Assembly: GCA_964604795.1 (NCBI GenBank)
Contig: CAZSBQ010000048.1
Location: forward strand, 1-20,039
Direction of reading: 5' to 3'
DNA: 20,039 nucleotides
DNA from: an uncultured Victivallales bacterium
GTDB taxonomy: Bacteria > Verrucomicrobiota > Lentisphaeria > Oligosphaerales > CAZSBQ01
A program made the position numbers and the translations under genes. Of this stretch, positions 1,694-20,039 are shown piece after piece (position 1 is the first letter of the stretch; the number at the start of each line of letters is the position of its first letter). The notes under the pieces were generated by a model. The model was not told the DNA's origin, did not search any database, and was given only the letters and a program-made list of their open reading frames with translations.

Positions 1694-1854
1694 TGCAACA
1701 GGAAACGGTCTGCTGTAAGGGTATTCCGCTCCAAGTCTGAAAAACAGTCTCAGGAACCCCTCCGCATATTAGTGGTCGCGCACAATTTTAAGGACAGTCA
1801 GTCCAAAGACAGAACGCGGGCGGTCGTGAGCTGGTTGCCGGCGGAGCATAGGCA

Positions 1855-3618: not shown

Positions 3619-3685
3619 GCCTTGCTGAGGCCCGTTCAGCAGGCAGTCGGCGGCCGCGCGCAGTGCAGCAGAATCCGGTTCCGGT

Positions 3686-3970: not shown

Positions 3971-4735
3971 GAATCCTGACTGCGCGACGGCATTTTGCCC
4001 TCCTGCTGGCGGAGCACAAGCAAAATCTCATGGCTGATCCCGAAGACCTGCCTTAGCTCGTTTCGGCCCTGATGCCGAATTCGGCATCAACTGCATAGCA
4101 CGGATTGGAAACCCTACCTCAAAAAAAATCGCGGAAAAATGATCCCCGACCACAGATCGCGAGCGAAGCGAGTGAGCTGTGGGACCGATAGGTCAAGGGG
4201 ATTCATTTTTTCGAATCCGGCCTAAACTCAAGCCGAATTTTGGATGCATTAGGGCGTATGGGCTGATCTTCAGGTATTTCGATCTTGTGTCAAATCATAT
4301 ATAGCCCTCTCCACTGCAGGGCCTGCAGTTGCTATGCTGCTCTTTGGCGAAGTGTGATGAGCAGCGCCTGGAGATGCCAGAAATAGGCTTTTTCAAACTG
4401 TGTGTAGTAGCGCAGCAATGAAGCACAGCGGGCCTTCTTATGCCTTCGCTCTCCCGTTTTCAGAGGTCAGAAAGGGTCTCGTCTGTACTGGTCTGCACAA
4501 GGGAACTGAAACCCAACCTCAGATCGATCCCCAGCACCGCAATCTCATCGACCCCGGAGTCTGTCCTGCAAATGCTCTCCGCCGCCTTTGTCAGGAGTCC
4601 ACAGAGCTTATCAAAGGGCAGGTGGGTGTTGCTCTCTGGATGTCGCCAGTAGTTCTTACTTCTCCCCTGATACACCAGAAGAAAAACGCCGCATCGGGAG
4701 CGGTTATCGCGCATGTATTGGCCGCGCAGCTGATT

Positions 4736-5595
4736 TTAAGCCGTTCGATGAGTTGACATGTTGACAATTTGTGAGCTATTTTTAATTCGATGAGCACAGG
4801 TGCGTCCACGCGCGCGGAATGGAGACGAATGTCGGGACGCTTTCCGTCGGCATAACTCTTCCTCCTGGGCCACGCTGTAGATGCTGCAACTGCGCTGCCT
4901 CAGCCAGTAGGCGAAATCATTGCGCAGTTGGACTTCTCGTTTGATGGCCTGCAATATGGATGCCCGGCTGTCCTCTGCTTCCTCGAGTTCGTGCTTCAAG
5001 TCGAGGAGTCGGCCGACGGTCAGATCGTAGAGTTCGGCGTGATTTCCGGGCTGCTTCACCCCCTTGTCGGCGAACTCGCGAACGGCGGCGAAAATGCCGC
5101 ATCGGTCAAGCGCTCCGTGAAGCTCCCGTCCAAGTCTCTTTATTGTCATCTCGAAGCGTTTGGGACCGACAAGGCGAGCCTCGTCAACCGAGTCGAGGAA
5201 GAAGAATGCTCGCGCCGAACCCCATTTTCGCCATTCCTCGAACTCCTCATGCGTTCCGGCCTCCTCGAACGCACTCTCGAAGCAGTCGCCGACAAACTCC
5301 AGGCGCACAAAGAAGGCTGCCTCACCCGAGGCCTTAAGTTTACAGGCGCAGTGCTTGAGTTCAGATGTCTTCCCCGACCCCGCTTCGCCCAGAATGACGA
5401 CACGGGGCAGTACCAGAAGATCGCCCCATCCCCTGGAGTCCAGTACGCCATGATGCCGAGAGTGTCGTAGTCATCGGATTGGTGCGGGTCTGGCGACAGC
5501 GGGATGAACTGCCGGTTCAAATGCAGGAAGTCAGTAGACATGGGGTAGCGATACGCTCTCGGTTTTTCCGGGCAGAAAGAGCCTTGCCAGTTCAA
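4736..5595 (-). pseudogene. P-loop NTPase (STAND/AAA-like), disrupted: N-terminal piece in one frame (5437..5541/5595), Walker A/B piece in another (4736..5470), followed by an in-frame TAA
   Basis: The minus frame that is open from 5470 encodes VVILGEAGSGKTSEL (Walker A) and FFFLDSVDEA (Walker B), but has no ATG/GTG/TTG before the GTG at 5308. The upstream ORF (ATG 5541, MSTDFLHLNRQF...AYWTPGDG) runs into it and is out of frame at the C/G-run 5425-5436. After the TAA at 4736-4738, the same frame reopens at 4714..4460. Confidence 0.55.
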
Positions 5596-5770
5596 TGCCT
5601 ACAATATCGCACCGACTGCAACACGCAATCCATTGTTCCCCTGCAGTTTCTCGTCCATTCAGAGAAACGCTTTCTGACGAAGCATTCACAAATCTGACGG
5701 TGAAGCAGGCAGGACACACGCTTTTCTGACGGTATAGCGTCAGTTTTATACGTCTGTATGTCAATGGGTT

Positions 5771-5800
5771 ATGACTTTTTAGTGGTTCATTTGGTATATA
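5771..5800 (+). promoter_or_regulatory. candidate promoter for the alpA-like gene (ATGACT-N18-TATATA)
   Basis: -35-like ATGACT at 5771-5776 and -10 TATATA at 5795-5800, in the divergent gap between the NTPase relic and the HTH gene. Weak -35. Confidence 0.25.
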
Positions 5801-5879
5801 TTACCTGCATTCGACCCGGACTGCTGGGGATGGTCCGCAGTGGCCGACGGGTCGCCAAACAGACAAGGAGAAGATGAGA

Positions 5880-6134
5880 ATGAGTGACAATTCAAGCAGG
5901 ACGCGGGAAAGAGGCGCAGGAGGCGATTTGATGACGCCCGAGCAAGCGGCGAAATTTCTAGGGGTAAAAAAAAGCTCGCTTGCTGCGGATCGATGTCGGC
6001 GAAGCTGGGACATTCCCTATTTTAAATTAGGTAGTGCCGTCAAGTACGCCCGCCGAGATTTGGAGAATTATTTGCAGAAATGTCGAGTTGACCACGGCAA
6101 GGAGGAGTGCGGAATTCCAATAAGAGCAGAGTAG
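5880..6134 (+). CDS. alpA: AlpA/Xis-family helix-turn-helix DNA-binding protein (excisionase/regulator, HTH_17-like)
   Basis: LMTPEQAAKFLGVKKSSL...IPYFKLGSAVKYARRDLENYL is the typical AlpA/Xis/MerR-like HTH followed by the wing. Alternative starts: ATG 5874 (poor spacing to AAGGAG) and ATG 5929 (GGAGG 8 nt upstream; gives 68 aa). Confidence 0.65.
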   Translation: MSDNSSRTRERGAGGDLMTPEQAAKFLGVKKSSLAADRCRRSWDIPYFKLGSAVKYARRDLENYLQKCRVDHGKEECGIPIRAE

Positions 6135-6155
6135 AAGGACCCACACAAGGGGGGG

Positions 6156-6180
6156 GGCACCGGACTTCAAGCCCGGTGCC
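6156..6180 (+). terminator. stem-loop GGCACCGG-N9-CCGGTGCC after the alpA stop, preceded by a G9 homopolymer (6149-6157); weak intrinsic terminator or RNA structure
   Basis: Perfect 8-bp inverted repeat at 6156-6163 and 6173-6180. It is followed by CCTCCACCCTTTAG, which is not a strong U-tract. Confidence 0.3.
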
Positions 6181-6206
6181 GCCTCCACCCTTTAGAACGA
6201 ACATTA

Positions 6207-7199
6207 ATGGAGAAGAATAATAACTTGAAGTCGAACACCGAAAAATTTGATCTGATGATGACGCCGATGATGCGGCTGCGGGCGAAATTGAAAGAGTTGC
6301 CCCCGCCGGGCTACGGCCAGGGATGCCATCCGGGGCTCCTGGGGTGCGCGAACCTGGCCAGACGCGCAGGACTGGACCGGACTTCCGCATTTTGCAGGCT
6401 CAAGAATGCGATCAAGCCCGGCCCACGCGAGGTTCCGGATACGGAGATAAAAGATGCCATCAATCTCGCATACGACGGCAATCAAGAGAGTAGACCTCGC
6501 CCGGCAGCGGTCCGGAGAGCCGAAGAGTCGGGAGTTCCGAGCTTCGATAGCGATGCCGAGCGAAATCGCATAATTCAGGCAGGTGCCGGATGGGATGAAG
6601 CCACTTGGATGGCTGCCTCCCCGACACCAATTCCCGAAGCCCCCGCCGAGCAGACGCAACTGGTGCTTCGCGAGCTGTTCAGCGTCAACGAGTTCGTTTT
6701 CGTGGGCGAGCGGTGGGGGACGTCGGACAGCGTCTTGAGAGTCGAACAGTGGGCTGGCATCCTGGCTGAATTTGCAGGAACCCTGAACCCGCCACACGTG
6801 ATCCCGAATCCGCTGACGGGAGACTGGGCTGCGAAGAGCTCAGGAGGTGGCAGTAAACGCTGCGACGAAGCCGTGGCCAAGTATCGAATTGCGGTCGCCG
6901 AATTCGACGGTCTCTCCCGAGAGGAGCAGTTGGCTTTTTGGGCGGGATTTGGTCGCCCGCTTGTGGCGCTGGTTGACTCCGGCGGAAAATCCGTTCACGC
7001 CTGGCTAAAAGTAGACTGCGCCGATGCCCAAGATTGGGGCGAGCAGGTGGGCAAAAAGCTTTACGGGGACCGATTAATCCCCCTTGGCGTCGATCCCGCA
7101 TGCCGGAATCCAAGCAGACTCTCCCGCCTACCGGGCATCACGCGAGACAATGGAAATATTCAGAACTTACTTTATCTGAAGAGTATGGAGAATCGATAA
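6207..7199 (+). CDS. primase-polymerase (archaeo-eukaryotic primase, PrimPol-like) replication protein
   Basis: AEP-like motifs: IAVAEFDG (acidic motif I), VDSGGKSVHAWLKV (motif II, sGxGxH), RLPGITRDNGN (motif III). Immediately followed by the DUF3987-like gene with overlapping TAAATG. Confidence 0.5.
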   Translation: MEKNNNLKSNTEKFDLMMTPMMRLRAKLKELPPPGYGQGCHPGLLGCANLARRAGLDRTSAFCRLKNAIKPGPREVPDTEIKDAINLAYDGNQESRPRPAAVRRAEESGVPSFDSDAERNRIIQAGAGWDEATWMAASPTPIPEAPAEQTQLVLRELFSVNEFVFVGERWGTSDSVLRVEQWAGILAEFAGTLNPPHVIPNPLTGDWAAKSSGGGSKRCDEAVAKYRIAVAEFDGLSREEQLAFWAGFGRPLVALVDSGGKSVHAWLKVDCADAQDWGEQVGKKLYGDRLIPLGVDPACRNPSRLSRLPGITRDNGNIQNLLYLKSMENR

Positions 7200-8495
7200 A
7201 TGCATAACCGAACATCTAGCCCAGATCCCGAGCGCGAATTGGAGCATATCATCGCAAATATGCCAGAGCGCAATCAGCCTATCCCAGATAGAATCCAAAG
7301 AATCATAGGCGACAGAGGGTTCTTACGGTCCTATCTTGACTTGCTCGGAGGAAGAAACGAAACTTCCTCGCTTTTTCACCTGGCCACCGCTCTAACCGTC
7401 CTCGGCGGCGGCCTGGCACGCAAAGTCTACGTCCGGCACGGCGAGCGTCGGGTTTACCCCAATTGTTTCACTTTAGTCGTAGGCAACAGCGGGATCTCGC
7501 GCAAATCCTCAGCGTTATCACCGGGGAAGCGGGTTTTTAGCAACTCCGGAACAGGTGATACAATGCCGGATAATTTCAGCGAAGAGGCGCTCGCTGAAAT
7601 TTTGAAGGAAGCTCCAGTCCTGGGAATCATCAGCGAGTTCAAAACCCTTGTAATGAATGCCGGAAAAAACTATGCGGGCGGCCTAATCTCGAGGCTCACC
7701 GACCTGTTCGACATGCCCGCGGAACTTTCTTTCGCCTTCAAAAAAAATGCGAAAAGGAAAGGAGAGGGCTGCAAAGTCGTCGTCCCGGATCCCACTCTGA
7801 GCCTAATCGCGGCGACCACTGAAGATTATTTCGCAGTCGACGACGCGGACGTTGCCGGTGGATTCGTGGGACGTTTTCTCGTGTTCGCGCACCAAGAGGA
7901 GACGCCCGTCATCCCGTGGCCGGCACCGATTCCGAAGGAAGCGTTTGTGCACCTGGGCGCAATGCTGCGCGAGCGTGCGGAAAACGGTTGCGGCGAGCTG
8001 GAACTGACCGCCGAGGCGAAAGATGCCTTCAGTGACATCTACCGGCGCTTCCGCAAAGAGGCCAGCGAGGCTCCCGATCGAAGTGCCGCGATGGACAGCT
8101 TCAGGTCCCGGGCTGGACTTTTCGTACTGAAGCTATCCCTAATTTTTGCAGTGAGCGAAAACCCGCACGCCAAGGTTATTGAAAAAACACACATTACGCG
8201 AGCAGAGCTGCTAGTCAAACAGTGCACTGAGGGACATGCCCGGTTGATCAGCCGCATATGCACCTCGAAATGGGAAAAAGACCGAAAAAAGGCTCAGGAT
8301 TTCATCGCCGCCCGCAGCGAAACCAGCATGCGAGACATTTATCGCCATCTCGGGGTTGATGTCCAAACCGCGGGTCGCATCGTCGACACGCTGGAGGCCA
8401 GCGGTTTGGTGCATTCTCGAATGGAGAAGGCCGCGAACGGCAAAGAAGTCGTTCGCATTGTTAATGGCCCCGATCCAGAAGAATCGGCAGCCTAA
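7200..8495 (+). CDS. DUF3987-like protein with degenerate P-loop (helicase-like partner of PrimPol in integrative-element replication modules)
   Basis: YPNCFTLVVGNSGISRKSSAL resembles the degenerate Walker-A region of DUF3987/primase-C-terminal proteins. The ATG at 7200 overlaps the PrimPol stop (TAA 7197-7199), indicating coupling, with GGAG 9 nt upstream. Confidence 0.4.
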   Translation: MHNRTSSPDPERELEHIIANMPERNQPIPDRIQRIIGDRGFLRSYLDLLGGRNETSSLFHLATALTVLGGGLARKVYVRHGERRVYPNCFTLVVGNSGISRKSSALSPGKRVFSNSGTGDTMPDNFSEEALAEILKEAPVLGIISEFKTLVMNAGKNYAGGLISRLTDLFDMPAELSFAFKKNAKRKGEGCKVVVPDPTLSLIAATTEDYFAVDDADVAGGFVGRFLVFAHQEETPVIPWPAPIPKEAFVHLGAMLRERAENGCGELELTAEAKDAFSDIYRRFRKEASEAPDRSAAMDSFRSRAGLFVLKLSLIFAVSENPHAKVIEKTHITRAELLVKQCTEGHARLISRICTSKWEKDRKKAQDFIAARSETSMRDIYRHLGVDVQTAGRIVDTLEASGLVHSRMEKAANGKEVVRIVNGPDPEESAA

Positions 8496-8505
8496 AATCA
8501 CACCC

Positions 8506-8533
8506 GGCGGGGAGGCCATCGTGCCTCTCCGCC
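8506..8533 (+). terminator. 11-bp stem hairpin GGCGGGGAGGC-CATCGT-GCCTCTCCGCC just after the 7200-8495 gene; possible terminator/RNA structure
   Basis: The inverted repeat has one G-U wobble. It is followed by TAAACGCGGAATTTCTATAAATTT, which is AT-rich but not a clean U-run. Confidence 0.3.
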
Positions 8534-8578
8534 TAAACGCGGAATTTCTATAAATTTATGAAAATACGAGGTTTACCT

Positions 8579-9088
8579 ATGTCGTCACGCGAAGATACCG
8601 TTCGCAAACATGTTTCATCCGCATTGGACGAGAGCAGCCGCGCTAACTTTGAAGCGGCGCTCAAAAGTCATAGCCTGACTTTTTACCAGAAGGGCCGGAG
8701 TCCCGCCGTCAATTTGAAAACCAACTCTGGGGGGCAACGCTTCAGGCTCCAGCGCCTGGGCCTGCTCGACAGATGGAACGCGGCGCTGGCCGCCTGGGGA
8801 GAAGATGCCAATTATCCCAGTCGGGGCACCGTGAGGACCAGGGGAAAAGGCGTGGACGAAATCGCCGCGCTCTGGCACGAATTCAGCAACAACAGCTCCA
8901 AGCTGTCCCCGAACGAGCGCTTGTCCGTGCGAGATTTCCTGGAAGAACTGTCTTACGATGATGTCTGCAAGGCGTTGGAAATTACAGCTTCGAGACTTTC
9001 AGGAAAACCAGACGAAGACCGATTTAGGTACTTCTGCGGAATTTGCTGGAATAAGATAAAGGAGCTCAAAAGCAGTAGGGCGGACTGA
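8579..9088 (+). CDS. hypothetical protein (approx 170 aa)
   Basis: ORF 8558..9088. The ATG at 8579 has GAGG 9 nt upstream, while 8558 has no RBS. No recognisable motif. Confidence 0.45.
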   Translation: MSSREDTVRKHVSSALDESSRANFEAALKSHSLTFYQKGRSPAVNLKTNSGGQRFRLQRLGLLDRWNAALAAWGEDANYPSRGTVRTRGKGVDEIAALWHEFSNNSSKLSPNERLSVRDFLEELSYDDVCKALEITASRLSGKPDEDRFRYFCGICWNKIKELKSSRAD

Positions 9089-9098
9089 CCTAAAGGGT

Positions 9099-9122
9099 GC
9101 GGGGAGTTCTCAAGCTCCCCGC
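9099..9122 (+). terminator. hairpin GCGGGGAG-N8-CTCCCCGC immediately after the 9088 stop
   Basis: 8-bp perfect stem, extendable with a bulge to GTGC...GCAC. There is no U-tract, so it is a weak terminator or a structural element. Confidence 0.3.
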
Positions 9123-9641
9123 GCACTTCCGCGGTCGAAAACCTGGGCGTTTATGGTGCACATCACGAATGGGTCCTCCCTTCGGGAGGAGCGATCTCGG
9201 TTGTGCAGCATGCACAAAACATCTGCCAGCTTTCTTTTGCCGGCGTGCTCCCGCTAGACCTGAAGCGAAAATGCGGAGGACTTCAGAAAACTTCGGGTGG
9301 CGGATAAAATCGTTTCAGCGGGGGGGCAGTTTGCAGCGGTGGCAAGGCATCCGGAACAAGAGACGATCCGCAGAACGGCATGGGTGCAGTACCTGCAGTA
9401 AACTAACTGTACATCAACTAGATACGGCCAGTATTGAAAGAGATTGATGGCGGATGTTTTTGGGGCTCCTGAGTTGGGCCGATCAACGGCTTTTTATGCG
9501 TACTCGAAAGCACCGGCAATGACGTTCGGGCGGCTGTCCGCCATCACAGTCTAAAGATGGCGCCTGGTAAACGCCGAAGGCCTGCAATCTGTTCATAGTA
9601 TTGTTCCACCCTGCCGTCCCCGACTGGTCATGAACTGATAC

Positions 9642-11571
9642 CTATTCCAGGACTGACGGCGCCAGACAGACGCGGAAGCCCAGGCTGTTGCCCGTGTTCT
9701 CCGGGCTGCTCCTGTTGCGGTAGGCCGACCGCACGATTCCGGACGAACCGACCCAGCAGCCGCCGCGACTGACGCGGTCCGAGGCCGCCTTAGTGTTCAC
9801 CGGGTTCGTCCCGGGCGACCGCCCGTAGAAATCGTCATCGTACCAATCATAGCACCACTCCCAGACGTTGCCCGACATGTCGTGCAAGCCGAGTTCGTTG
9901 GCTTTCAATTGCCCGACTTCGTGCGTTTCTCCCCCGCTGTTGTCTCGGTACCACGCCACCTCATCCGCGTTGTTCGAGCCGGAATACGTGTACCCCCGGC
10001 TCCTGTTACCGCCGCGCGCGGCGTACTCCCACTCCGCCTCCGTCGGCAGACGGTACACGTACCCGTCCGGCAGACGTCCGGCACGGCGCTCCCGCCCCGC
10101 CAACGCCTTGCAGAATTTGTCCGCATTGTTCCAGGATACGCCTTCCGCCGGAAAGCGGGGATGAGTGATACGTCTGACCTCCCGTCCGATGCCCAGAAAA
10201 CCGGACTTCACAACGTCCTCGTCTTGAAAATGACTTGGATTTCTGCCCGTCAGCTTCTCGTACTCTCCCTGCGTCACCGGATACTTACCCATCCAGAAGG
10301 GATGCGTTAGCGTCACCTCGTGGACCGGCTTTTCGTCTTTGTATGCGTCGGCCTGATCGCTGCCCATCTGGAAGGTCCCCGGTTCCACTCGGACGAACTC
10401 CATGCCCAGCTCGTTGCCGGCGGTCGGGTCGTCTGCAGGTGAAGCGGCATCGGATGCTGTTGGTGTGTCGGCTCGAATCGGTTCAGGTCGGGCCGGTTGC
10501 GGCTTATGCTGCACGGATGATGCTTCCGATGCAGTCGATGGTTCGCCCGGCAAACGTTCGCGCATGGCTGCGGCATCCGCAAAACGGCCGGAGGCATCCT
10601 CCTCCAACGCCGTAAGGATAAGCTCATCCCAGGCGAGATCGAGGCTTTTTACGTAGTACGATGGTGGCCGGGGACCGACCTGCTTGCCGGTGAGCAGCCG
10701 ATACATCATCAGGCCGACGCTGTAGACATCGCTTGCGGGCGTGGCGTCCTCGCCGCGCTTTTGCTCCGGGGACATGTACTCAAAGGTTCCCAGCATGGAC
10801 TTTGTGCTGGCTCCCGCACCCTCGGGAAGCTCAGTCTGCATCCCGCCGATGCTCATCGACATCTTCACGGACAGCTCGGCCTGACTGCGCACCCACTCCT
10901 CGCCGATCATGCGGACCAGTCCAAAGTCGGCGATCTTGAAGGTGGCGTAGCCGTCGCCGTCGGTGCAAATCAGGATGTTGGCGGGTTTTAGATCGCGGTG
11001 AATCACGCCATGTTGGTGCGCGTGAGCCAGGCCGTCCAATACCTGAGCGAACACCGCAGCCGCCTCATCTGAATCGAGCCGCCCACCCTGCGCCTCGGCA
11101 TACTCCCCCAACGTCCTGACCTCTGCCCTCTGATCTCCGCCCTCTGCCCTCCGACCTCCGACTTCTGCCCTCCGATCTCCGGCATCCAGCTCGTGGGGAC
11201 ACTCGCCCTCCAGGTTCAAGGACAAAGCCACTCGCCAGTTCCATTCGCAGCCAGTACCGCCCGTCGGTCTCGCCGAAGTCATCGACCTGAACGATATTGG
11301 GATGCTCGATATTCGCCATGGCGCGCGCCTCGCGCCGGAACCGCTCGAGCGCATCCGCCCGGTTTGCGAAGTCCGCAGGTAAAAGCTTGAGAGCGTACCT
11401 TCGAAGCAGGGTCGTATGCTCAACCTCATACACTTCCCCCATCCCGCCGCGCCCCAGCAGCCGAACGACTCGATACTGCCCAAGCACGTTACCGGGCTTC
11501 AAAGACGAACCTCCCGGGTCTTTGCCCCCAGGCGGCATCGTCTCATCGAAGTTGATGGTGTTGTCGTTCAT
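9642..11571 (-). CDS. Ser/Thr protein kinase fused to a C-terminal FGE-sulfatase (formylglycine-generating-enzyme-like) domain; frameshifted between kinase N-lobe and C-lobe
   Basis: N-lobe (ORF 11065..11637): [18 protein letters not shown] (Gly loop), YALKLL (beta3 Lys). C-lobe (ORF 9642..11483): [20 protein letters not shown]-sulfatase-like region: [16 protein letters not shown]...[16 protein letters not shown]...NVWEWC...RGGCW. The two frames swap between 11211 and 11238. ATG at 11571 (MNDNTINF); the GTG 11637 extension lies inside the upstream repeat. Confidence 0.8.
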
Positions 11572-11574
11572 GTC

Positions 11575-12195
11575 GTTCGCTTGTTTCTTGGGGCGCTGCC
11601 CCAAACCCCGCCAGGGGAAACGTGGTTCCCCCTGCACCCCCCCAAGGTAGTCAGGACCGGGGGCAATGGGCCGGGAACTTGAACGGTTTTGATAAACCGC
11701 TCAACTTCCCGACCCGGTTCCGCATTTTTTTTTTGGGCCTTCCAATCGTTATACCCTAAAATCGTCATACCTTCTCCGGCTCTTGTCTTCTCTCCGCGCC
11801 TCTGCGCCTCCGCGCGAGAATCATGCCTTTCCAATCGTCATACCATCTCTCTGCCTTTTGTGCTGGGACTGGGGGACCATGGGTGTGTGGGGTTGTGAGT
11901 ATGTGGGTGTCACTGGCAACTGGCAACTCGCGTTTCGCGCCTCACGTTTTATGAACAGGCAGGGATGCCTATTCTACTTTGCCCTTTGACTTTGCCCTAC
12001 CAATCGTCATACCTCTCTCTTTGCCTTTGCCCCATGATTCTGCCGCCAATGATTCTGCCAAATCTGCTCTTGCCTTACTTGCGTAAAACGTGTGTGGGTG
12101 GGTCTGTGGGTGTCAGGTTTCGTTTCACGCATCACGTTTTATGAACAGGCAGGGATGCCTATTCTACTTTGCCCTTGCCTTCCGCTTGTCATACT
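11575..12195 (+). repeat. modular intergenic repeat, copy A
   Basis: hp1 TTGGGGCGCTGCCCCAA 11588-11604; hp2 11611-11634; 41-bp palindrome CCGGGAACTTGAACGGTTTTGATAAACCGCTCAACTTCCCG 11671-11711, then T10 11725-11734; AATCGTyATACC at 11744, 11760, 11833, 12002; CGCG-rich unit 11790-11845; GT-rich 11881-11910; ACTGGCAACTGGCAACT 11912-11928; hairpin AACAGGCAGGGATGCCTATT 11954-11973 and again 12134-12153; ATGATTCTGCC x2 12034-12059. Confidence 0.8.
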
Positions 12196-13895
12196 TACCG
12201 CACGATGGTTTGGTTGTCGCTGGAGCGCTTGGCGGCTTCGGTGGCGGGTTCGACGGTGGTTTTTAGGTTGCGTTCCTGGCGGTCGCCGGTGTCCTTGTAG
12301 AGCGAGCGCATTTCTTCGAGCAGCTCGCGGTACTTGTCTTCTTCGCCCTGCTTCATGCGTGCGAGCGCTTCGGCGGCTGCGGGACTGTCGGCGGCCGCCG
12401 CGGCGAGGATTTGCTCGGGGGTTTTGCCGTCCTGCGATTTGAGTCGCATGGCGTCGAGGATGGATTTGCGCGCGTCGGGGTCCTGGATGTCGGCGAGCAT
12501 CTCCAGTTCGGACATGCCGGAGCGGCGCTTGGCATCCAATTCGGCCATCTCGGCCTTGTGCTCCTCCTTCTGCTTGCGCAGGCCCATGGCCCATTCGGTC
12601 TCCTCGCGTTCGCGCTGGTCGGCCCACTCCTTCTCCTTTTTCTCCTGCTCGAACTGGATATCGCGGACCTGGGTTGCGGTTTCCGTATCCTTTACCTGCT
12701 TGTCGCGCTCGTAGCCGTCGCGCTTGACGGATACGCCGAGGTCGTGCTCGAGTTTTTCGGATTCGACCTGGAAGGTATGGCGCAGGTCGTCGAGTTCGTC
12801 CCGCTTCTCCCAGGCGCGGTGCAGCTCGGTGCGTTCGCGGTCGCGCTTGTCCTCGGCGATGCCGTACTCGTGGGCGATGGCGGCCTGGTAGTCGGCCAGT
12901 TCCTGCTCCGAGTGGAACTGGTCCATTTGGTCCTTGGAAAGCAGCGAGCGCATCTGCTGATCGTACTCGATCTCGCGCCGCTTCTGCTCGACTTGGCCCA
13001 TCTTCTCGGCGAGGTCTTCGTACTCTTCGCCGGTGAATTCGGCGGAGGAGACGCGGACCAGCTCGATGCCCTGACGGACAAGCGCCTCGCGCAGGTAGCG
13101 GTCGAGGTCGTCCTGCAGGCGCAGGCGCCGCTCGGGATCTCGGACGAGGTCTTCGACGGTGCTCTTTACGCACATGGCGTCCACGGCGTGCCGGATATCC
13201 GATTCGAAGGGCGAGGTCATGTCTTGGTAGGATATCTGCTCGGCGTCCTTGAAGCGGTTTTCGAGGAAGGCGATGGCGCTCTTCTTGTCGTTGCCGAAGC
13301 GAACGATGACCTCGCCGTAGAATTCGATGGGCAGGCCCTCGGAGGTGCGCAGGCTCTCCAGGCGTACTGGGAGGATGACGTCGCCGGCGTCGACGAGCAC
13401 GACGGAGCGCGGCGGCGGGTTGCCGAAGCGGTTGATGGCGCGCGCCAGGCTGTCGGGGTTGTGCCGTCCCGCTTCCAGGATGCCGCGGAACTGTCCGCCG
13501 TCCATGAGCAAGGCGACGGTGCCGGCTTGGACGAGCAGGTCGTTTTTGAGCAGGCGCTTGATGTCGCCGATCTCAAAGCGCTGGGCGAAGACGCCGGGCT
13601 GCTTGCTCCAGACGCCGCCCGCAATGTCCGCGCGGCTCTCGGGATGCAGCGGCTGGTTGCAGTGGGGGCAGAAGTGGGAGTCGTTGCCGATCCATTTGCG
13701 GCAGGAGGGGCATTTCCACCAGCCGCCGGGGGCGGGACGGCCGCATTTGTTGCAGAATCGGGCAGCCTTGCGGACCTTGTTGTCGCAGACGGGCCAGTCA
13801 GGGTCCTGCCGCGCCTGCTCCAACGCTTTGCCGCTCAACGCGCGACCGCTGTTCGGATCGATCAAAGCCTGACATGTGTCACTGAAAATACCCAT
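12195..13895 (-). CDS. zinc-ribbon + SPFH/band-7 domain protein with long charged coiled-coil C-terminal region
   Basis: N-terminal CxxC...CxxC...CxxC (CNKCG...CPSCR...CPHCN). Central region VVLVDAGDVILPVRLESLRTSEGLPIEFYGEVIVRF...DIRHAVDAMCVKSTVEDLVRD...LREALVRQGIELVRV fits the SPFH fold pattern. E/K/R-rich C-terminus. ATG 13895 (MGIFSD) with GAGGTG RBS; the TTG 13964 extension (MGQRPKKQ...) lies in the repeat. Confidence 0.5.
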   Translation of the reverse strand: MGIFSDTCQALIDPNSGRALSGKALEQARQDPDWPVCDNKVRKAARFCNKCGRPAPGGWWKCPSCRKWIGNDSHFCPHCNQPLHPESRADIAGGVWSKQPGVFAQRFEIGDIKRLLKNDLLVQAGTVALLMDGGQFRGILEAGRHNPDSLARAINRFGNPPPRSVVLVDAGDVILPVRLESLRTSEGLPIEFYGEVIVRFGNDKKSAIAFLENRFKDAEQISYQDMTSPFESDIRHAVDAMCVKSTVEDLVRDPERRLRLQDDLDRYLREALVRQGIELVRVSSAEFTGEEYEDLAEKMGQVEQKRREIEYDQQMRSLLSKDQMDQFHSEQELADYQAAIAHEYGIAEDKRDRERTELHRAWEKRDELDDLRHTFQVESEKLEHDLGVSVKRDGYERDKQVKDTETATQVRDIQFEQEKKEKEWADQREREETEWAMGLRKQKEEHKAEMAELDAKRRSGMSELEMLADIQDPDARKSILDAMRLKSQDGKTPEQILAAAAADSPAAAEALARMKQGEEDKYRELLEEMRSLYKDTGDRQERNLKTTVEPATEAAKRSSDNQTIVR

Positions 13896-13924
13896 CGCTG
13901 CACCTCGTCTTTCGCTTTGCTTGG

Positions 13925-14430
13925 TGGTTTGTTTGCTTGCTTGTTTCTTGGGGCGCTGCCCCAACCCCCGCCAGGGGAAATGATTTCCCCTGGACCCCTC
14001 GGGCTGTTTTACCGCGAATCTCGTAAATCCGCGCGGCAGGGGACAGAGGGCATGGGTCGGGAACGTGAGCGGTTTTTGGCAAACCGTTCAAGTTCCCGCC
14101 CCGGCTCCAGTTTTTGATTTTCCTGTCGCTACTTCCGGACCATGGGGGGTGTGGGTTTGTGTGTGTGGGTGTGTGGGTGTGTGGGGTTGTGTTACTGATT
14201 ACTGGTCACTGGTCACTCCCGCTTTACGCTTGACGAACAGGCAGGGATGCCTGTTTTACGTTATCCTCTGCCTTTGCCCCATGATTTTGCTGTCAATGAT
14301 TTTGCCAACCTGCCCTTGCCCTTCTAATCGTCATACCCCAATAATCGTCATACCTTCTCTCTGCCTTTGCCTTCTCCCTCACGCCTCACGCCTCACGCCT
14401 CACTCATCACTCATCACCTGTCTTGCAGAG
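13925..14430 (+). repeat. modular intergenic repeat, copy B
   Basis: hp1 13948-13964; hp2 CCAGGGGAAATGATTTCCCCTGG 13971-13993 (11-bp perfect stem); palindrome CGGGAACGTGAGCGGTTTTTGGCAAACCGTTCAAGTTCCCG 14058-14098 plus T-runs 14111-14122; GT microsatellite 14147-14192; ACTGATTACTGGTCACTGGTCACT 14193-14216; terminator-like hairpin 14236-14258; ATGATTTTGC x2 14281-14304; AATCGTCATACC x2 14326-14354; CCTCACG x4 then CACTCAT x2 14369-14418. Confidence 0.8.
14236..14258 (+). terminator. terminator-like hairpin AACAGGCA-GGGA-TGCCTGTT + TTTT (module of the repeat family; perfect copy)
   Basis: 8-bp perfect stem, GGGA loop, U4 tract, in the + orientation only (antisense to all neighbouring genes). 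Equivalent copies lie at 20016-20037 (perfect) and 11954-11973, 12134-12153, 18209-18228 (one stem mismatch, TGCCTATT). Confidence 0.35.
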
Positions 14431-14502
14431 CAGTATACTCGATATTCCCGGGATTTTCAACTCCTCTATTTATCTCTGTTTACGGGAGCGGTGCTGCGTT
14501 GG

Positions 14503-15363
14503 TCAGGTTTCTCGCTTGGCCAGGGTTTCGCAGGCGCAGTAGTTGTAGGTACCCAGCACGGCGACGCTGACGGCCAGGGCTGCGGGCAGCCACGGCCCGG
14601 TGACGGTGTAGAGTCCGAGCAGGGCCAGCGCGGCCATTCCGATGGCCGTGTACCCCAGCAGCAGGAGAGCCCCGGCTGCATTGGTGCGTTGGCGACGCGC
14701 ATGGAAACTCAGGGGAGCGGTGATCCAGGGCAGAGCGGCAATCCCGGCGATGCCCAGCAGCCAGACCAGAATGCGACTGCCGCCGCCGTGGTTCTCGTCC
14801 TCCCGCGCCGCGGCGACGGTGGAACTGCCGGTCACGGCTTCGTTGAGCAGCCGCCGCTTCTGCCCCGGCGCGAAGGCGCGCAGTTGAACGGTGGCAAGCG
14901 CGTCGGCTTCGGTGGATGTGATGTCCCGCACGCTGCCCGCAATCACCACATCCAGGTCGACGCGACGCCCGGCGTTGAGTATCTGCTCCAGGGTGGTTGC
15001 GCCTTCGAGCTGGCTGGTGACGTCCTTCAGGAAGCGCTTGATCACCGACCGGTCGTCCACCTCGAAGCGGGGATGCCCGGCGACGGCCCGGCGCAGAGTC
15101 GTCGTCACCTCGTCGGTGGGATCGGAGAGCAGATGAGCCACGCCCACGCGCAGGGGCGTTTCATCCTCGGCAGGCGCCAGTTTGGCCGCCATGCGCTCGA
15201 CAAACTCCCGGCACAGCTGCTCGACCGCATGCCGCTCCTGCTCGGTCAGCTCCGGCGGACGCGGACGGCTGAAGACAAACACCTGCCAGCCGAGAAACGC
15301 CAGAACGACCAGGGCCAGTCCCTTCAGAGAAACCATAAACCACAAAAACCGCATTACGCTCAT
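14503..15363 (-). CDS. hypothetical membrane protein (N-terminal TM helix, 3-4 C-terminal TM helices)
   Basis: ATG 15363. Hydrophobic N-terminus FLWFMVSLKGLALVVLAFLGWQVFVF and C-terminus ILVWLLGIAGIAALPWI...ALLLLGYTAIGMAALALLGLYTV...ALAVSVAVLGTY. No family recognised. Confidence 0.5.
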   Translation of the reverse strand: MSVMRFLWFMVSLKGLALVVLAFLGWQVFVFSRPRPPELTEQERHAVEQLCREFVERMAAKLAPAEDETPLRVGVAHLLSDPTDEVTTTLRRAVAGHPRFEVDDRSVIKRFLKDVTSQLEGATTLEQILNAGRRVDLDVVIAGSVRDITSTEADALATVQLRAFAPGQKRRLLNEAVTGSSTVAAAREDENHGGGSRILVWLLGIAGIAALPWITAPLSFHARRQRTNAAGALLLLGYTAIGMAALALLGLYTVTGPWLPAALAVSVAVLGTYNYCACETLAKRET

Positions 15364-15384
15364 GAGAACACCTTTGATTGAAAG

Positions 15385-15445
15385 TACGACGAGTAGGAGG
15401 TATGACGATTGATTGGTATGACGATTAGAGGGGGTGACAATTGTT
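15385..15445 (-). repeat. minimal copy of the AATCGTCATACC direct-repeat module (two units 16-17 bp apart), here inverted relative to the other copies
   Basis: GGTATGACGATT at 15399-15410 and 15415-15426, then GGTGACAATTG 15433-15443 (compare CCAATTGTCAACC at 18292). It lies 35-60 nt upstream of the 15363 ATG on the gene-sense strand. Confidence 0.6.
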
Positions 15446-15448
15446 TGT

Positions 15449-16269
15449 TTAGGTTGTTGATTGGTTGCATTGCAGGGTCATGACTGTGATGGTTGGACCG
15501 GCAAAATTGATCCAGTCGAGTGCAGTAAAGGCAGATGAATCGAGGCGGCGCTGAAGATGGCGGCGCACCGTGTCGAGGTGCCTGGACTCCGTATGGCCCG
15601 TGACCTCGAATGCGGCCTGCTTATCCAAGCGGTGAAAGCGGCTGTATCCGGCGAATGCGCCGTCGTAGAACACAGGGGATTGCACCAGGACATTCTGCTC
15701 GCCGCCGAGCAAATGCACCAATGCATCGCGATAAAGATCGATGGAGAGGAATGCCCCCCAATCCGAAAGAACACTGCGCAGGAAATCCACGAGCAAGCGA
15801 CTTCTGTCTCCGCGCGGCTGCCAGTTGCCGACATCAAGGTCGAATCGATATCTGTCCTCGGTCGCACATTGAGTAGTAACGTATTCGCTTTCCACCGAGG
15901 ACGTCCCGAGATTGACCAATTTTCCGGTTCCCAGCCCCAGCATCAGGAGGTAGTTCAGAAGCTGTCCCCGATGCCTGTCGTCCAAACCGCGCATTGCCTT
16001 CAATTCATACACCACTGCATTCTCGGCAAGCGCATCGATAGAGTAGCACTTTTCGAAGGAACCATGCCGACATAGGATCGGGACTTCCGTGTGGACACTG
16101 AGGCCATCCTGCGAGCATGCATTCCGCAGAGCATTCTGATATACCCGCTCGTCCTGCATTGACCCGAGCGTGCGGTGGACGGCAAAAGCATGTCCCATGA
16201 CTCTGTAGTCCAGTTCATGGTATTCGTCCCGCGACACACGCCGCACCTCGCAATCAAACTCAATCGGCA
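15449..16269 (-). CDS. hypothetical protein with PD-(D/E)xK nuclease-like motif
   Basis: ATG 16269 (MPIEFD) with GGAG 8 nt upstream. The ORF-track start at 16294 is a TTG inside the repeat. Motif SIDALAENAVVYELKAM fits D-x(n)-E-x-K of restriction-endonuclease-fold proteins. The assignment is tentative. Confidence 0.35.
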
Positions 16270-16284
16270 TATCAATCTCCAACC

Positions 16285-16536
16285 TGCCTTCCAATCGTCA
16301 CATCCTACTCTCGGCCTTTTGGACCGTGGGACTGGGGGACTGATGGACCGGGGTGCCCACCCTCCCTGCCTGCCTTGTCATTCTGCCAAACCGCATTTGC
16401 CCTAGCAATCGTCACACCCAAAAAATCGTCATACCCGCTCTCTGCCCTTGCCCTTGCCCTTGCCTTTGCCTTCCAATCGTCAACCCCATAATCGTCAACC
16501 CAACGCCTTTCTGCCCTTGCCCTTTGATTGTCATCC
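16285..16536 (+). repeat. modular intergenic repeat, copy E (AATCGTCAyACC-rich variant)
   Basis: CAATCGTCACATCC 16291; GGGACTGGGGGAC 16328-16340 (as in copies A and C); AATCGTCACACC 16405 and AATCGTCATACC 16422; (TGCCCTTGCC)n 16442-16470; AATCGTCAACC x2 16473-16499; TTGATTGTCATCCC 16523-16536. Confidence 0.7.
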
Positions 16537-17667
16537 CTACTCCTCCTCCGTTTTTTTGCGTCTGTCCGGCTCGGGCTCATCGAAGTCGTCCAGATCGCTT
16601 GTCGCCGGGGCGATCGTTGCCGGCGCGCGCTCGGCCGTATCCTCCTCCGCCTCCGGTTCCTCATCAAACCCGGCAAGCAGCTCGTCCAGGTCCTCTTCCC
16701 CCTCCTCCTCCCGCCGGCGTCCGGCGCGGTCCAGGTCCCTCATCGCATCCATCACCGCATCGGCTTCGCCCGCCTTTTCATCCAGGTCCTCCACCAGACT
16801 GTCCACCTGGTCCTCATCGATTCCGCGCAGATCATAGGCGAGCATTTCCAGAAAGCGTCCGCGCACCCGCGAGACCACGCGCTCATTTTCCAGCAGCACG
16901 CCCAGCTCGCGCTCCGCATCCTTGTATCCCGACAGCAGATTCTTCAGCTCCATGTCGAGCACCCGCCGACGCGCGCTGCCCGCCTTTTCCCGCTCCTTCT
17001 TCTTGGCGACAATATCCTTGTGCAGCGACTCAAGCCGCCCCGACACGCCCTCGCGACGCTCCCTGTTCTGCGATATCTGGCCGTCGAAGGTTGCCAGCAT
17101 CGTCTCCGGAGACGTATCCTTGCGCAGCTTGCCGAGCAGGCCCGCCGCCTGTCCGCCCGCCTTGCGGAGCATATCCAGCGTGTTCCTCATCGCGCTCTTC
17201 GCCACCGGTTTCGGGGCGTTCCTGGCCAGTTCGCGGTCTTTCTCGGTGCTCATTGCCGGTTCCTCCGACTCCGTCGCGGCCGCTGCGGACTCCGCAGACC
17301 CCGACGAAGGTTCGCTGTTGGATTGTTCCTCGTTTCGATTCCACATCCGCTTCCACCAGGGACGCGTTGAATTCTCACTCTCCGTCCCCGATGCCGCCGC
17401 GGACTCCGCAGTCTGCCCGGAGTGCTCCGGGGTCGCTTCCCGGTTCGACTCGGTCTCGGACGCCGACTGACGCGAAACCGCCGCCTGCCCGCCACCGCTC
17501 TCGTCCGGTTTCCACCCGTGCGCGGGACAACGCCGGTTGCCGCGGCGCCAATGCAGGTCGCAGAATGCCGCGCCGCAGCCCTCGGCATCGCACGTTCCCG
17601 CCACAGCATACCGATTCGGCAACGCCCGCCCGCAAATGCAGCACTGTGTCTTGCTCTCGGTCATCAT
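16537..17667 (-). CDS. hypothetical Cys/His-rich (zinc-finger-like) protein with low-complexity S/E-rich middle and highly acidic C-terminus
   Basis: Double ATG at 17662-17667 with GGGTGA upstream. N-terminus CCICG...C..C...C..H....C..H. C-terminus EEEGEEDLDELLAGFDEEPEAEED. No family recognised. Confidence 0.5.
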   Translation of the reverse strand: MMTESKTQCCICGRALPNRYAVAGTCDAEGCGAAFCDLHWRRGNRRCPAHGWKPDESGGGQAAVSRQSASETESNREATPEHSGQTAESAAASGTESENSTRPWWKRMWNRNEEQSNSEPSSGSAESAAAATESEEPAMSTEKDRELARNAPKPVAKSAMRNTLDMLRKAGGQAAGLLGKLRKDTSPETMLATFDGQISQNRERREGVSGRLESLHKDIVAKKKEREKAGSARRRVLDMELKNLLSGYKDAERELGVLLENERVVSRVRGRFLEMLAYDLRGIDEDQVDSLVEDLDEKAGEADAVMDAMRDLDRAGRRREEEGEEDLDELLAGFDEEPEAEEDTAERAPATIAPATSDLDDFDEPEPDRRKKTEEE

Positions 17668-17789
17668 TCACCCAAGGTCATGGTTGCGTCCGTCAATGCT
17701 CGAGTCGTCCGTGCCGGCGTAAACGTATCGCGGGTTATCTCTTTTTACAAACGCACAAACACAAACACAAACGAAAACCCGAATCGAAC

Positions 17790-18403
17790 CGAGTCGAGTC
17801 TTGGGGCGCTGCCCCAAACCCCGCCAGGGGAAATGATTTCCCCTGGACCCCTCAGGCAGTTTTACCGCGAATCTGGCAAATCCACGCGAATGGGGGCAAG
17901 GCACGGACAGGGGCACGGGCAAGGGCAGGGGCCGGGAACTTGAGCGGTTTTTGGCAAACCGATCAAGTTCCCGACCCAGTTCCGCATTTTGGTTCTCCAA
18001 TCGTTATACCCTAAAATCGTCATACCTTCTCCTGCTCTTGTCTTCTCTCCGCGCCTCTGCGCCTCCGCGCGAGAATCATGCCTTTCCAATCGTCATACCA
18101 TCTCTCTGCCTTTTGTGCTGGGACTGGGGGACCGTGGGTGTGTGGGGTTGTGAGTATGTGGGTGTCACTGGTAACTGGTAACTCGCGTTTCGCGCCTCAC
18201 GTTTTATGAACAGGCAGGGATGCCTATTCTACTCTGCCTTTGCCTTATGATTCTGCCATCGATGATTCTGTCAAAACTGCCTTTGCCTTTCCAATTGTCA
18301 ACCCCATAATCGTCAACCCAATGCCTTTTCCTTCTCTCCGCGCCTCTGCGTCTCTGCGCGAGAATCATGCCTTTCCAATCGTCCACCGGGGGCGTTGCCC
18401 CGG
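17790..18403 (+). repeat. modular intergenic repeat, copy C (near-identical to copy A over ~330 bp)
   Basis: CAAACA tract 17745-17775; hp1 17801-17817; hp2 CCAGGGGAAATGATTTCCCCTGG 17824-17846; palindrome 17935-17975; AATCGTTATACC / AATCGTCATACC 18003-18030 and 18088; CGCG-rich unit 18037-18095 and again 18333-18390; GT-rich 18125-18160; ACTGGTAACTGGTAACT; hairpin 18209-18228; ATGATTCTG x2 18246-18275; AATTGTCAACC / AATCGTCAACC 18292-18320; hairpin CCGGGGC-GTT-GCCCCGG 18387-18403. Confidence 0.8.
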
Positions 18404-18494
18404 CCTGGTATGCGGCGCGCCGTTGGCGCAGATGCGGTGGACGCGTTTGTTCCAGCGGATCGTTGTTTGCGGCTCTGCGCAAAGAACGATCCAT

Positions 18495-18565
18495 GGGGGG
18501 TGCAGGGGGAACCACGTTTCCCCTGCCGAGGGTCTGGGGCGAGCAGCCCCTGGGTCTTGGCGTTC
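18495..18565 (-). repeat. inverted partial copy of the hp2/hp1 module of the repeat family
   Basis: GGGGGGTGCAGGGGGAACCACGTTTCCCCTG is the reverse complement of copy A 11611-11640. It is followed by GGGGCGAGCAGCCCCTGG, an hp1-like GGGGC...GCCCC hairpin. It abuts the 3' end of the AAA+/DUF4143 gene. Confidence 0.55.
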
Positions 18566-18601
18566 AAATGTCAACCCAACTCCCCGCAGGCGCCGAGGCT
18601 C

Positions 18602-19864
18602 TCAGCGCAGCAGCCAGTGGGCGGGGACATGCCAGATTCGGTCGTTGATCTTCTCGATAGTCCCGCCCGCGGTCACAAGCAGTCCGATACCGTCGGCATC
18701 CTGCTCGACGAACTTCTTCAGGTGCCGCGTATCGGCGGGATGGTACGTGTTCGACGCCTTGCACTCGCAGTACGCCGTAGTGTCGGGATTCGCCAGGGGG
18801 AAGACCGCGTCGACCTCCACCCCGGTCGAGGTGCGGATGAAGAAAAGGTCCTCGCGCAGGCTGGACAGATATAACTGCTTGCGAATATCGGTCAGCACCG
18901 TGTTTTCGAAAAGCTCCCCGGCATCCTGCCGGTAGTTGTTCAGCAGACAGCGCGCGAGCCCCGTGTCCGAGAAATACCACTTCGGGCTCTTCATCACCCG
19001 CTTGCCCAGGTTGCGGAAAAAGGGAGTCAGTCGCCACGCGATGAACAACTGCCGGTAGTAGTGGACGAAGCGACGCACCGTGTCCGCAGTCACCCCGCAG
19101 TCCCGGGCCAGCTCGCTCACATTCAGAAGCGAGCCCAGGCGAAGGGCAAACAGGGACTCGAAGCGCTCGAAAACATCCGCCGACTTCAGATTCACCAACT
19201 CGCGCAGGTCGGTTTCCAGGTACGTCTGCCGATAACTGTTCAGCCAGTTCCGACGGTCCTGGCCGTCGCGACGGGTGAGGAACTCCGGATAGCCGCCGTA
19301 CAGATTGAAATCCCGGAACCGGTCCAGCAGCTCCGCGGACTCCTGCACGGGGAGGTAGAACTCCGCAAGAATCCGCTCGGCCGCGCCGACCGATTCGGCC
19401 TCCAGCAGCGTGCTTAGCAGACCGGGGCCGTCGAGACCGCACAGCTCACGAAACGACAGCGGATCGAGCCGATAGAGCGCCACCCGCCCGGCCAGCGACT
19501 CCTTCACCTGCCGATGCAGCAGCAGGTGATTGGAGCCCAAAAGCAGAAACCGCCCCTTCACATTCGGGCGCTCGTCCACATCCAACTGGACCCGCTCCAC
19601 CAGCTCGGGCAGGCGCTGCACCTCGTCGAGAATGATCAACCGCTCCGCGTAGTGGGCGAACTCCCGTCGCGCGCCGTCCCCCTGCAATGCGGCGCGCACA
19701 CTGGGATCCTTGAGATTGTAGTACTGCACCGGCCGGTCGGTCTTCAGCAACTGGCGGACCAGCGTCGTCTTGCCCGTTTGACGCGCGCCCATGACCGCAA
19801 TCACCCGCTCGACATCAAGCGCGCGGGTAATATGCGGCGTCAATTGTCGCGCAAGAAAGTTCAT
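18602..19864 (-). CDS. AAA+ ATPase with C-terminal DUF4143 domain (AAA_14/DUF4143 family ATP-binding protein)
   Basis: ATG 19864 with GGTGAG RBS. Walker A VMGARQTGKTTLV; Walker B LIILDEVQ. The C-terminal half is typical of DUF4143 proteins (LRLGSLLNVSELARDCGV...YFSDTGL). Confidence 0.75.
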   Translation of the reverse strand: MNFLARQLTPHITRALDVERVIAVMGARQTGKTTLVRQLLKTDRPVQYYNLKDPSVRAALQGDGARREFAHYAERLIILDEVQRLPELVERVQLDVDERPNVKGRFLLLGSNHLLLHRQVKESLAGRVALYRLDPLSFRELCGLDGPGLLSTLLEAESVGAAERILAEFYLPVQESAELLDRFRDFNLYGGYPEFLTRRDGQDRRNWLNSYRQTYLETDLRELVNLKSADVFERFESLFALRLGSLLNVSELARDCGVTADTVRRFVHYYRQLFIAWRLTPFFRNLGKRVMKSPKWYFSDTGLARCLLNNYRQDAGELFENTVLTDIRKQLYLSSLREDLFFIRTSTGVEVDAVFPLANPDTTAYCECKASNTYHPADTRHLKKFVEQDADGIGLLVTAGGTIEKINDRIWHVPAHWLLR

Positions 19865-19974
19865 AGCTCACCAAATGCTGCATCAATGGGCGGAATCGTC
19901 AATTTACAGTGTATATCGCCATATGCCAGCGCCAGTTCACGGTGGAGAGTGTTTGGTGGTTCAATTGTCTGAGC

Positions 19975-20039
19975 GGTCTTGTTCACGCCTCACGTTTCAC
20001 GCTTCAAGTTTTATGAACAGGCAGGGATGCCTGTTTTAC
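19975..20039 (+). repeat. partial copy of the repeat family (hairpin-terminator module) running off the window end
   Basis: CACGCCTCACGTTTCACGCTTCAAGTTTTATGAACAGGCAGGGATGCCTGTTTTAC. The perfect AACAGGCA/TGCCTGTT hairpin at 20016-20035 plus TTTT. It sits upstream (gene-sense) of the 19864 ATG. Confidence 0.7.

Follow-up and report, generated by a model that had tools for sequence, protein, structure and literature searches.

Contig CAZSBQ010000048.1 of an uncultured Victivallales bacterium carries an array of six genes on its minus strand (9642-19864), the gaps of which are occupied by repeats that are built from a common set of short modules. The whole contig of 20,039 nt was analysed (the window in the following), and its right end coincides exactly with the end of one of the repeat hairpins. 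The locus raises the question whether these repeats form a system that is specific to this array, as implied by a preliminary description of the sequence, or whether they are part of the intergenic DNA that the host carries anyway. Based on our findings we consider it probable that the repeats are the host's own dispersed mosaic intergenic family, resembling repetitive extragenic palindromes (REPs) and bacterial interspersed mosaic elements (BIMEs), rather than a locus-specific system, i.e. the kind of element is known, whereas this family, from a poorly studied lineage, is undescribed. The repeats are located where the preliminary description had placed them, and far beyond chance: three long composite blocks (A, B, and C) are accompanied by shorter pieces in four other gaps.

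The most conserved module of these repeats is a small hairpin, which reads GTAGAAyAGGCATCCCTGCCTGTTC on the gene strand, the stem being GAAyAGGCA-TCCC-TGCCTGTTC. It is present in five copies:

11953-11977, minus strand: REP hairpin GTAGAATAGGCATCCCTGCCTGTTC with a 9-bp stem, a 4-nt loop and a GTAG tag
12143-12167, minus strand: further copy of the REP hairpin
14235-14259, minus strand: further copy, tag GTAA
18208-18232, minus strand: further copy
20015-20039, minus strand: further copy, tag GTAA

All five copies are short palindromes with the 9-bp stem and 4-nt loop of GTAG-type REPs, three of the five carry the GTAG tag, and all of them are extragenic, i.e. they lie in gaps between minus-strand genes, one of them 28 nt past the stop codon of the SPFH gene. 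GTAG-tagged REPs have been reported from Cyanobacteria, Chloroflexi, and the PVC (Planctomycetes-Verrucomicrobia-Chlamydiae) superphylum; they lie mainly where adjacent genes are co-directional or convergent, and distant species have some of the families in common (Di Nocera et al. 2013, PMC3733652). In the literature we found nothing specific on the sequence of the hairpin or on repeats of Kiritimatiellota. With one genome per species an 18-nt core of the hairpin occurs at at least 98 loci. Among the 99 core matches listed, the majority of which fall outside long open reading frames (ORFs), 80 have the complete stem and 75 of these 80 the GTAG or GTGG tag as well; the hosts among these matches include many Calothrix, Verrucomicrobia/Opitutales, Zixibacteria, Chloroflexi, and Acidobacteria as well as a Leptospiraceae and a Desulfobacteraceae metagenome-assembled genome. 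In those genomes the REP hairpin is not accompanied by the other modules of the window, which are thus regarded as lineage-specific.

Across phyla, the tagged hairpin GAACAGGCAGGGATGCCTGTTC (GTAG or GTGG) is near-identical (e.g. L003, L008, L035, L044, L078, L094), with dozens of copies in Calothrix, and it often adjoins variant hairpins that have the loop ATCC(Y)T and the inverted orientation. Such cross-phylum identity is unusual for REPs and suggests either the exchange of a hairpin-specific enzyme or strong convergence. The near-identical GTAG/GTGG hairpins of Cyanobacteria, the PVC superphylum, Zixibacteria, Chloroflexi, and Acidobacteria could mark one family of hairpin-recognising enzymes that has been exchanged between phyla. 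Within the 20-kb window there is no gene for a REP-associated tyrosine transposase (RAYT, a Y1 HUH transposase).

In the window the REP hairpin is embedded in much larger assemblies, the three long blocks:

11579-12194, minus strand: composite block A, between the stop codon of the SPFH gene (12195) and the start codon of the kinase-FGE gene (11573)
13939-14416, minus strand: composite block B, upstream of the SPFH gene, module order as in A and C
17799-18383, minus strand: composite block C, upstream of the coiled-coil/zinc-finger gene, with a second CGCG unit and a GGGTTGACGATT variant pair

Read in gene direction, block A begins with a REP hairpin, an AC-rich run, the promoter-like module D10 (tandem CAGAATCAT), GGTATGACGATT, and a second REP hairpin, which lies 190 nt from the first in the same orientation. 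AGTTGCC (twice), an AC-rich run, CAGTCCC, GGTATGACGATT with the CGCG-rich unit, and two more GGTATGACGATT follow, and the block ends with an A-run, a 48-nt palindrome, and the hairpins hp2 and hp1. Blocks A and C, which are direct repeats 6.2 kb apart, are 92.5% identical over 333 nt in a gapped alignment, in agreement with the near-identity over ~330 bp described earlier, and a 255-nt core (A 11732-11986, C 17987-18241) reaches 96%. Block B matches A and C in collinear pieces of 69-85% identity, i.e. it indeed shares their architecture in diverged sequence; it is devoid of the CGCG unit and has TGAGGCG heptamer repeats.

The same modules, partly in shorter copies, are distributed over the gaps as follows:

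11588-11642, minus strand: hairpin pair of hp1 (TTGGGGC-N3-GCCCCAA) and hp2 (CAGGGG..CCCCTG; CCAGGGGAAA-N3-TTTCCCCTGG)
13948-13993 and 17801-17846: further copies of hp1/hp2
18495-18560: inverted copy of hp1/hp2
18384-18440, minus strand: variant hairpin pair GCGCCAACGGCGC ... CCGGGGCAACGCCCCGG
11668-11715: GGGAAC/GTTCCC palindrome of 48 nt with 22-nt arms; copies at 14053-14102 and 17929-17978
12034-12061, minus strand: D10 module, tandem GGCAGAATCAT; also at 14281-14308 and 18247-18274
15392-15443, plus strand: short copy with two GGTATGACGATT and a GGTGACAATTG variant, in the gap between the PDDEXK_3 and membrane protein genes, inverted with respect to the genes
16286-16530, minus strand: partial copy with five GGTATGACGATT-type units, (GGCAAR)n and CAGTCCC, no hairpins, upstream of the PDDEXK_3 gene
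19966-20039, minus strand: partial copy with CACGCCTCACG repeats and a REP hairpin, upstream of the AAA_14/DUF4143 gene

The 12-nt direct repeat GGTATGACGATT (which is AATCGTCATACC on the other strand) occurs 18 times with up to two mismatches, as compared to 0.9 expected occurrences, mostly paired at a spacing of 16-18 nt, and all copies are confined to 11744-18319. Repeat finding reproduced nearly the complete module list of the preliminary description, including the GGGGC-N3-GCCCC hairpins and the GGGAAC/GTTCCC palindrome, and also returned GAACAGGCAGGGATGCCT, the CGCG-rich unit, GT-rich runs, the ACTGGyAACTGG repeat, and the ATGATTyTGCC pairs; the T-run that was said to go with the palindrome is long in copy A only. 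Perfect hairpins of at least 7 bp (hp1, hp2, and the REP hairpin) cluster in the repeat gaps. No module is found in 1-11500, just as the left 9 kb had been described, and the modules are strictly intergenic, although the kinase gene contains a tandem repeat of its own (11120-11182). As had been stated, it is the long composite copies that share the orientation of the genes; both the short copy (15392-15443) and the hairpin pair (18495-18560) are inverted with respect to them. Several roles of GGTATGACGATT, namely as promoter -35 box, as mini-ORF with a Shine-Dalgarno sequence and ATG, as LexA/Cheo box or as parS half-site, were rejected as they do not fit its spacing or orientation.

Modules of this kind are also present beside other genes in a relative. 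The closest SPFH homologue (84% identical) is encoded on L106, a 2.7-kb Logan contig from another study, where GGTATGACGATTGG is located 20 nt past the SPFH stop codon and a second copy follows a TumE-family gene at the contig end; CAGTCCCC octamer repeats are found as well. A GGGGC-N3-GCCCC hairpin is situated upstream of SPFH at the orthologous place, its closing pairs changed from TT/AA to CC/GG, and the module beside it, directly upstream of SPFH, is the variant pair of window 18380-18450 and not hp2. Thus, the modules are common to the lineage, stand beside other genes, and are exchanged between sites. A second line of evidence comes from assembly break points. Exact-protein look-ups returned the same locus on Logan contigs of 1.7-2.2 kb, and contigs from different runs stop inside GGTATGACGATT pairs at the same sites, i.e. 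at 14336 (two runs) and at 16495 (two runs). The terminal 30-mers of these contigs occur once in the window, and therefore the branch in the de Bruijn graph has to stem from copies elsewhere. Eight of nine relatives with 58-84% identical SPFH proteins are on contigs of 2-6 kb and the ninth is on a contig of 18.7 kb; more distant SPFH homologues are found on contigs of up to 87 kb. As the SPFH homologues bear the labels Planctomycetota, Lentisphaerae, and Kiritimatiellae, we place the host in the PVC superphylum.

In relatives with 63-65% identical SPFH proteins the intergenic motifs differ, e.g. L107 and L115 have CTACGAAA...TTTCGTAG inverted repeats, and L113 contains CTCCGCG units that are similar to the CGCG unit of the window. 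In L107 (1762-1930 and 5700-5790) and L115 (2796-2964) the repeat after SPFH has a GTTTATGAAC core flanked by an inverted pair (AACTACGAAAnACGC...GCGAAAAAGG and TTTCGCG...TTTCGTAGTTA); this pair (relatives with 63-64% identical SPFH) is kept in two contigs of different source and recurs after another gene.

The left part of the window has a different origin:

1-55: 3' part of a tRNA-like gene (T-arm, acceptor stem and CCTCTCC-G-CCA), Ser-like by eye
138-1436: tyrosine integrase (phage integrases, phrog_1)
5874-6134: excisionase-like HTH protein
6207-8495: primase in two ORFs (DUF3987)
8558-9088: HNH nuclease

As these four kinds of genes are lined up beside a tRNA-like 3' end, the left ~9.4 kb is foreign DNA, and the region 138-9447 is an integrative mobile element adjoining this tRNA-like end. 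The tRNA-like 3' end (1-55) has a weak Rfam match to the 3' end of tmRNA, no tRNA gene is called there by ARAGORN, and a second copy of the tRNA end (attR) that bounds the island was not found in the window. The left half, being an integrated foreign element, is therefore free of repeats, unlike the right half. Taken together, the cross-phylum REP class of the hairpin, the modules of L106, the assembly breaks, and the foreign nature of the left half leave the locus-specific reading unsupported; the first three of these contradict the locus-specificity that the preliminary description had implied. The end of the window in a REP hairpin, the short SPFH contigs of the relatives, and the distinct repeats found in some of these relatives likewise speak against it.

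Several observations weigh against a dispersed native family. A large number of copies throughout the genome is presumed on indirect grounds, namely the assembly break points and the related contig. A search of JGI metagenomes with tandem AATCGTCATACC gave three chance matches (42-44% G+C, no other module), IMG/VR one chance match inside a coding region, and BLASTN against plasmids and phages no match. Two of the five REP hairpins in the window carry GTAA instead of GTAG, and all five have the same orientation, without the inverted dimers typical of REPINs (REP doublets forming hairpins) and BIMEs. Finally, D10 of all three long blocks contains a σ70-like site on the gene strand, TTGGCA/TTGACA-16-AATCAT (9-10 of 12), and this site together with the hairpin pair near start codons fits a leader or promoter at least as well as a trailer.

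Comparison with known repeat systems places the window repeats closest to REPs and BIMEs. With GTAG-tagged REPs (PMC3733652; Nunvar et al. 2010, PMC2817692) they share the palindrome of 22-25 nt, the 9-bp stem, the 4-nt loop and GTAG at one end, as well as G-T pairs in the stem and the intergenic position between co-directional genes. In contrast to these REPs, however, the window hairpins are co-oriented without an inverted dimer, two have GTAA, and the hairpin is but one of about ten modules in a block. BIMEs of E. coli are likewise modular intergenic mosaics in which stem-loops and short conserved motifs recur in a certain order; their REPs are regularly spaced and alternate in orientation, and most BIMEs are shorter than 200 bp (PMC3333891, PMC2817692). 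The window hairpins, in contrast, are of several unrelated types and co-oriented, the blocks measure 0.5-0.6 kb and contain direct repeats and microsatellites, and instead of paired, alternating REPs only the hp1/hp2 pair has one inverted copy. STAR elements of Staphylococcus (PMC3532100) resemble GGTATGACGATT in being short (12-14 nt) intergenic direct repeats with variable spacers, and their copy number varies between loci and species (PMC3532100); nevertheless, the sequences are unrelated, and the window repeat is mostly paired 16-18 nt apart and set among hairpins.

Based on these similarities we propose that small units, i.e. the GTAG-tagged REP hairpin, two or three other G+C-rich stem-loops, GGTATGACGATT, and microsatellites of 7-8 nt, may gather in the intergenic DNA of the native chromosome, and that segmental duplication or gene conversion may then spread a composite of ~0.5 kb from gap to gap. 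A and C would represent recent copying or homogenisation, and B would be older. The long blocks are flanked by co-directional genes and therefore probably transcribed together with them, as is the case for BIMEs. By analogy with REPs and BIMEs the hairpins might, as local stem-loops of RNA or DNA, shield 3' and 5' ends, attenuate read-through, and insulate neighbouring genes from each other, and A and C, being directly repeated at a distance of 6.2 kb, might serve as recombination substrates.

The strongest rival, which we nevertheless regard as unlikely, is a portable promoter-and-leader block, composed of the D10 promoter and a leader of ~400 nt with two hairpins before the start codon, by which the kinase-FGE, SPFH, and coiled-coil genes would be co-controlled, the GGTATGACGATT pairs being the binding sites of one regulator. 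The genes of the array are the following:

start 11573, minus strand: Ser/Thr kinase fused to an FGE-sulfatase domain (PD-T4-6-like kinase)
start 13895, stop 12195, minus strand: SPFH/double-zinc-ribbon protein
minus strand: membrane protein, the gene being separated from the PDDEXK_3 gene by an 85-nt gap
minus strand: PD-(D/E)XK_3 (GxxExxY) protein
start 17667, minus strand: coiled-coil zinc-finger protein
18602-19864, minus strand: AAA_14/DUF4143 ATPase, matching PADLOC candidate PDC-S01

Apart from the σ70-like site, this rival is favoured by the position of hp1 and hp2, which precede three start codons by 15, 50, and 130 nt, by the retention of hp1 upstream of SPFH in L106, where the change of two closing pairs is compensatory, and by the adjacency of the SPFH and kinase-FGE genes in more distant relatives, too. 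The three D10 sites, however, are homologous copies and thus count as one observation. Moreover, GGTATGACGATT keeps no fixed distance to start or stop codons, is also found inverted (15399-15426) and, in L106, right after stop codons, and the genes behind the partial copies are unrelated. In fact, the functions of all six genes are unrelated, which speaks for the dispersed family.

The idea of a regulon with structured leader or trailer RNAs, put forward in the preliminary description, has weak support at most: the local hairpins are robust, but the z-scores of whole-block folding against shuffles range from -0.6 to -2.8 (-2.6 and -0.6 for the two strands of A, -1.1 and -2.8 for those of B), i.e. 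there is no gain on a consistent strand. An Rfam search of the whole window and of blocks A and C, a kind of search that had been proposed there, yielded generic hairpin matches of at best 13-33 bits, compared to gathering thresholds of 41-120 bits. As whole-block folding is weak and inconsistent between strands, a large structured RNA is rejected and only the local hairpins stand. The weak folding and the lack of an Rfam match also count against the portable promoter-and-leader block. In a variant that we judge quite unlikely, the ~0.5-kb block would be a mobile or convertible cassette that carries the D10 promoter, GGTATGACGATT operator pairs, and hairpins by the start codon, and brings unrelated genes under one circuit. 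If true, it would co-control several defence-type genes, namely those for the PD-T4-6-like kinase, the PDC-S01 ATPase, the PD-(D/E)XK nuclease, and the SPFH protein.

Non-autonomous mobile elements were the closest of the candidates put forward in the preliminary description, insofar as REP/BIME-type repeats may be counted among them, but it is improbable that the blocks are MITE-like, i.e. transposons of about 0.6-0.76 kb resembling miniature inverted-repeat transposable elements (MITEs) and moved by a transposase encoded elsewhere. Like MITEs such as Nezha, ERIC, and NEMIS/Correia the blocks are of suitable size, non-coding, intergenic, and likely co-transcribed with their neighbours; A and C are >92% identical, and C is bracketed by inverted hairpin pairs (17801-17846 and 18495-18560). 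C is the only block bracketed in this way, however. A and B have no terminal inverted repeats, as the hairpin pair is present at one end only and the other end runs into unrelated sequence or a stop codon. Target-site duplications, which the preliminary description had suggested to look for, were not seen at any of the homology boundaries (11579, 13939, 17799, 12194, 14416, and 18560). Furthermore, the identity of A and C is patchy, 96% and then about 80%, as expected for conversion between mosaics and not for the transposition of one unit, and the modules occur apart and in other order in gaps IG3 and IG4 and in L106.

It is highly improbable that the genes are cassettes of an integron-like array, or of another one based on site-specific recombination, in which the repeats serve as recombination sites, although the genes are co-oriented and unrelated, every gap contains related repeats, and a tyrosine recombinase gene is present on the same contig. 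A core-pair search on both strands for attC-like RYYYAAC...GTTRRRY pairs 35-140 nt apart gave no hit as compared to about two in shuffled sequences, the repeats are mosaics of 0.25-0.6 kb and not single sites of 60-140 nt, and the recombinase (138-1436) has no NCBIfam integron-integrase match and is located 8 kb off among excisionase-like, primase, and HNH genes. With neither an attC-like site for each cassette nor an IntI beside the array, the suggestion of cassette boundary elements is rejected. Hardly any credence can be given to a coding role of the blocks, i.e. to small proteins or to upstream ORFs in translational coupling with the genes that follow, since, even though minus-strand ORFs (11568-11834 and 17668-18000) end at or overlap the kinase and coiled-coil start codons, the frames through homologous modules differ between copies owing to indels, none of 10 candidate ORFs was found by exact look-up in a collection of 15 billion proteins, and protein searches with the translated repeats found no protein.

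Some observations concern the genes rather than the repeats. The kinase-FGE gene is present in two reading frames, the N-terminal part at 11573-11185 and the remainder from about 11084, and the region 11084-11224 includes an extra segment of ~100 nt that is not present in homologues and holds three copies of a 21-bp tandem repeat (11120-11182); the gene may be either a pseudogene, the target of an intragenic repeat insertion, or subject to an assembly error. In several relatives (L108 3009-9287, L109, L107, L113, and L115) an HTH_17 gene and one or two kinase-FGE genes precede the SPFH/zinc-ribbon gene, and a conserved cluster for an FHA or 524-aa protein, an AAA ATPase, an LpoB-like protein, bPH_2, and another kinase follows it. 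This arrangement points to a conserved module for signalling or conflict, and only its SPFH and kinase-FGE genes are kept in the window.

A >90% identical copy of the AAA_14/DUF4143 gene is found in another gene context in L099 (a run of the same accession series), the upstream sequence in common with the window being only about 25 nt (ATATACAnTGTAAATTGACGA), and in other samples (L110-L112) AAA_14 remnants of 90 aa lie beside DEAD-helicase/RNase_H_2 genes, which suggests that this gene moves on its own. About 110 nt past its stop codon in the window, at 18448-18490, a strong 15-bp stem-loop, GGATCGTTGTTTGCG-GCTCTG-CGCAAAGAACGATCC, is located outside the repeat family; it may be the terminator of the AAA_14 gene, albeit without a U-tract.

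Returning to the dispersed native family, the apparent locus-specific system most likely represents the repeat load that an uncultured PVC bacterium carries in its native intergenic DNA, and a rich, previously undescribed mosaic repeat family is now documented for a poorly studied lineage. Such repeats account for the fact that genomes of this clade assemble into pieces of 2-6 kb, and the 6-kb segment enclosed by the direct repeats A and C could be deleted or rearranged through them. Moreover, one REP hairpin that is common to several phyla bears on how REPs and their transposases spread.

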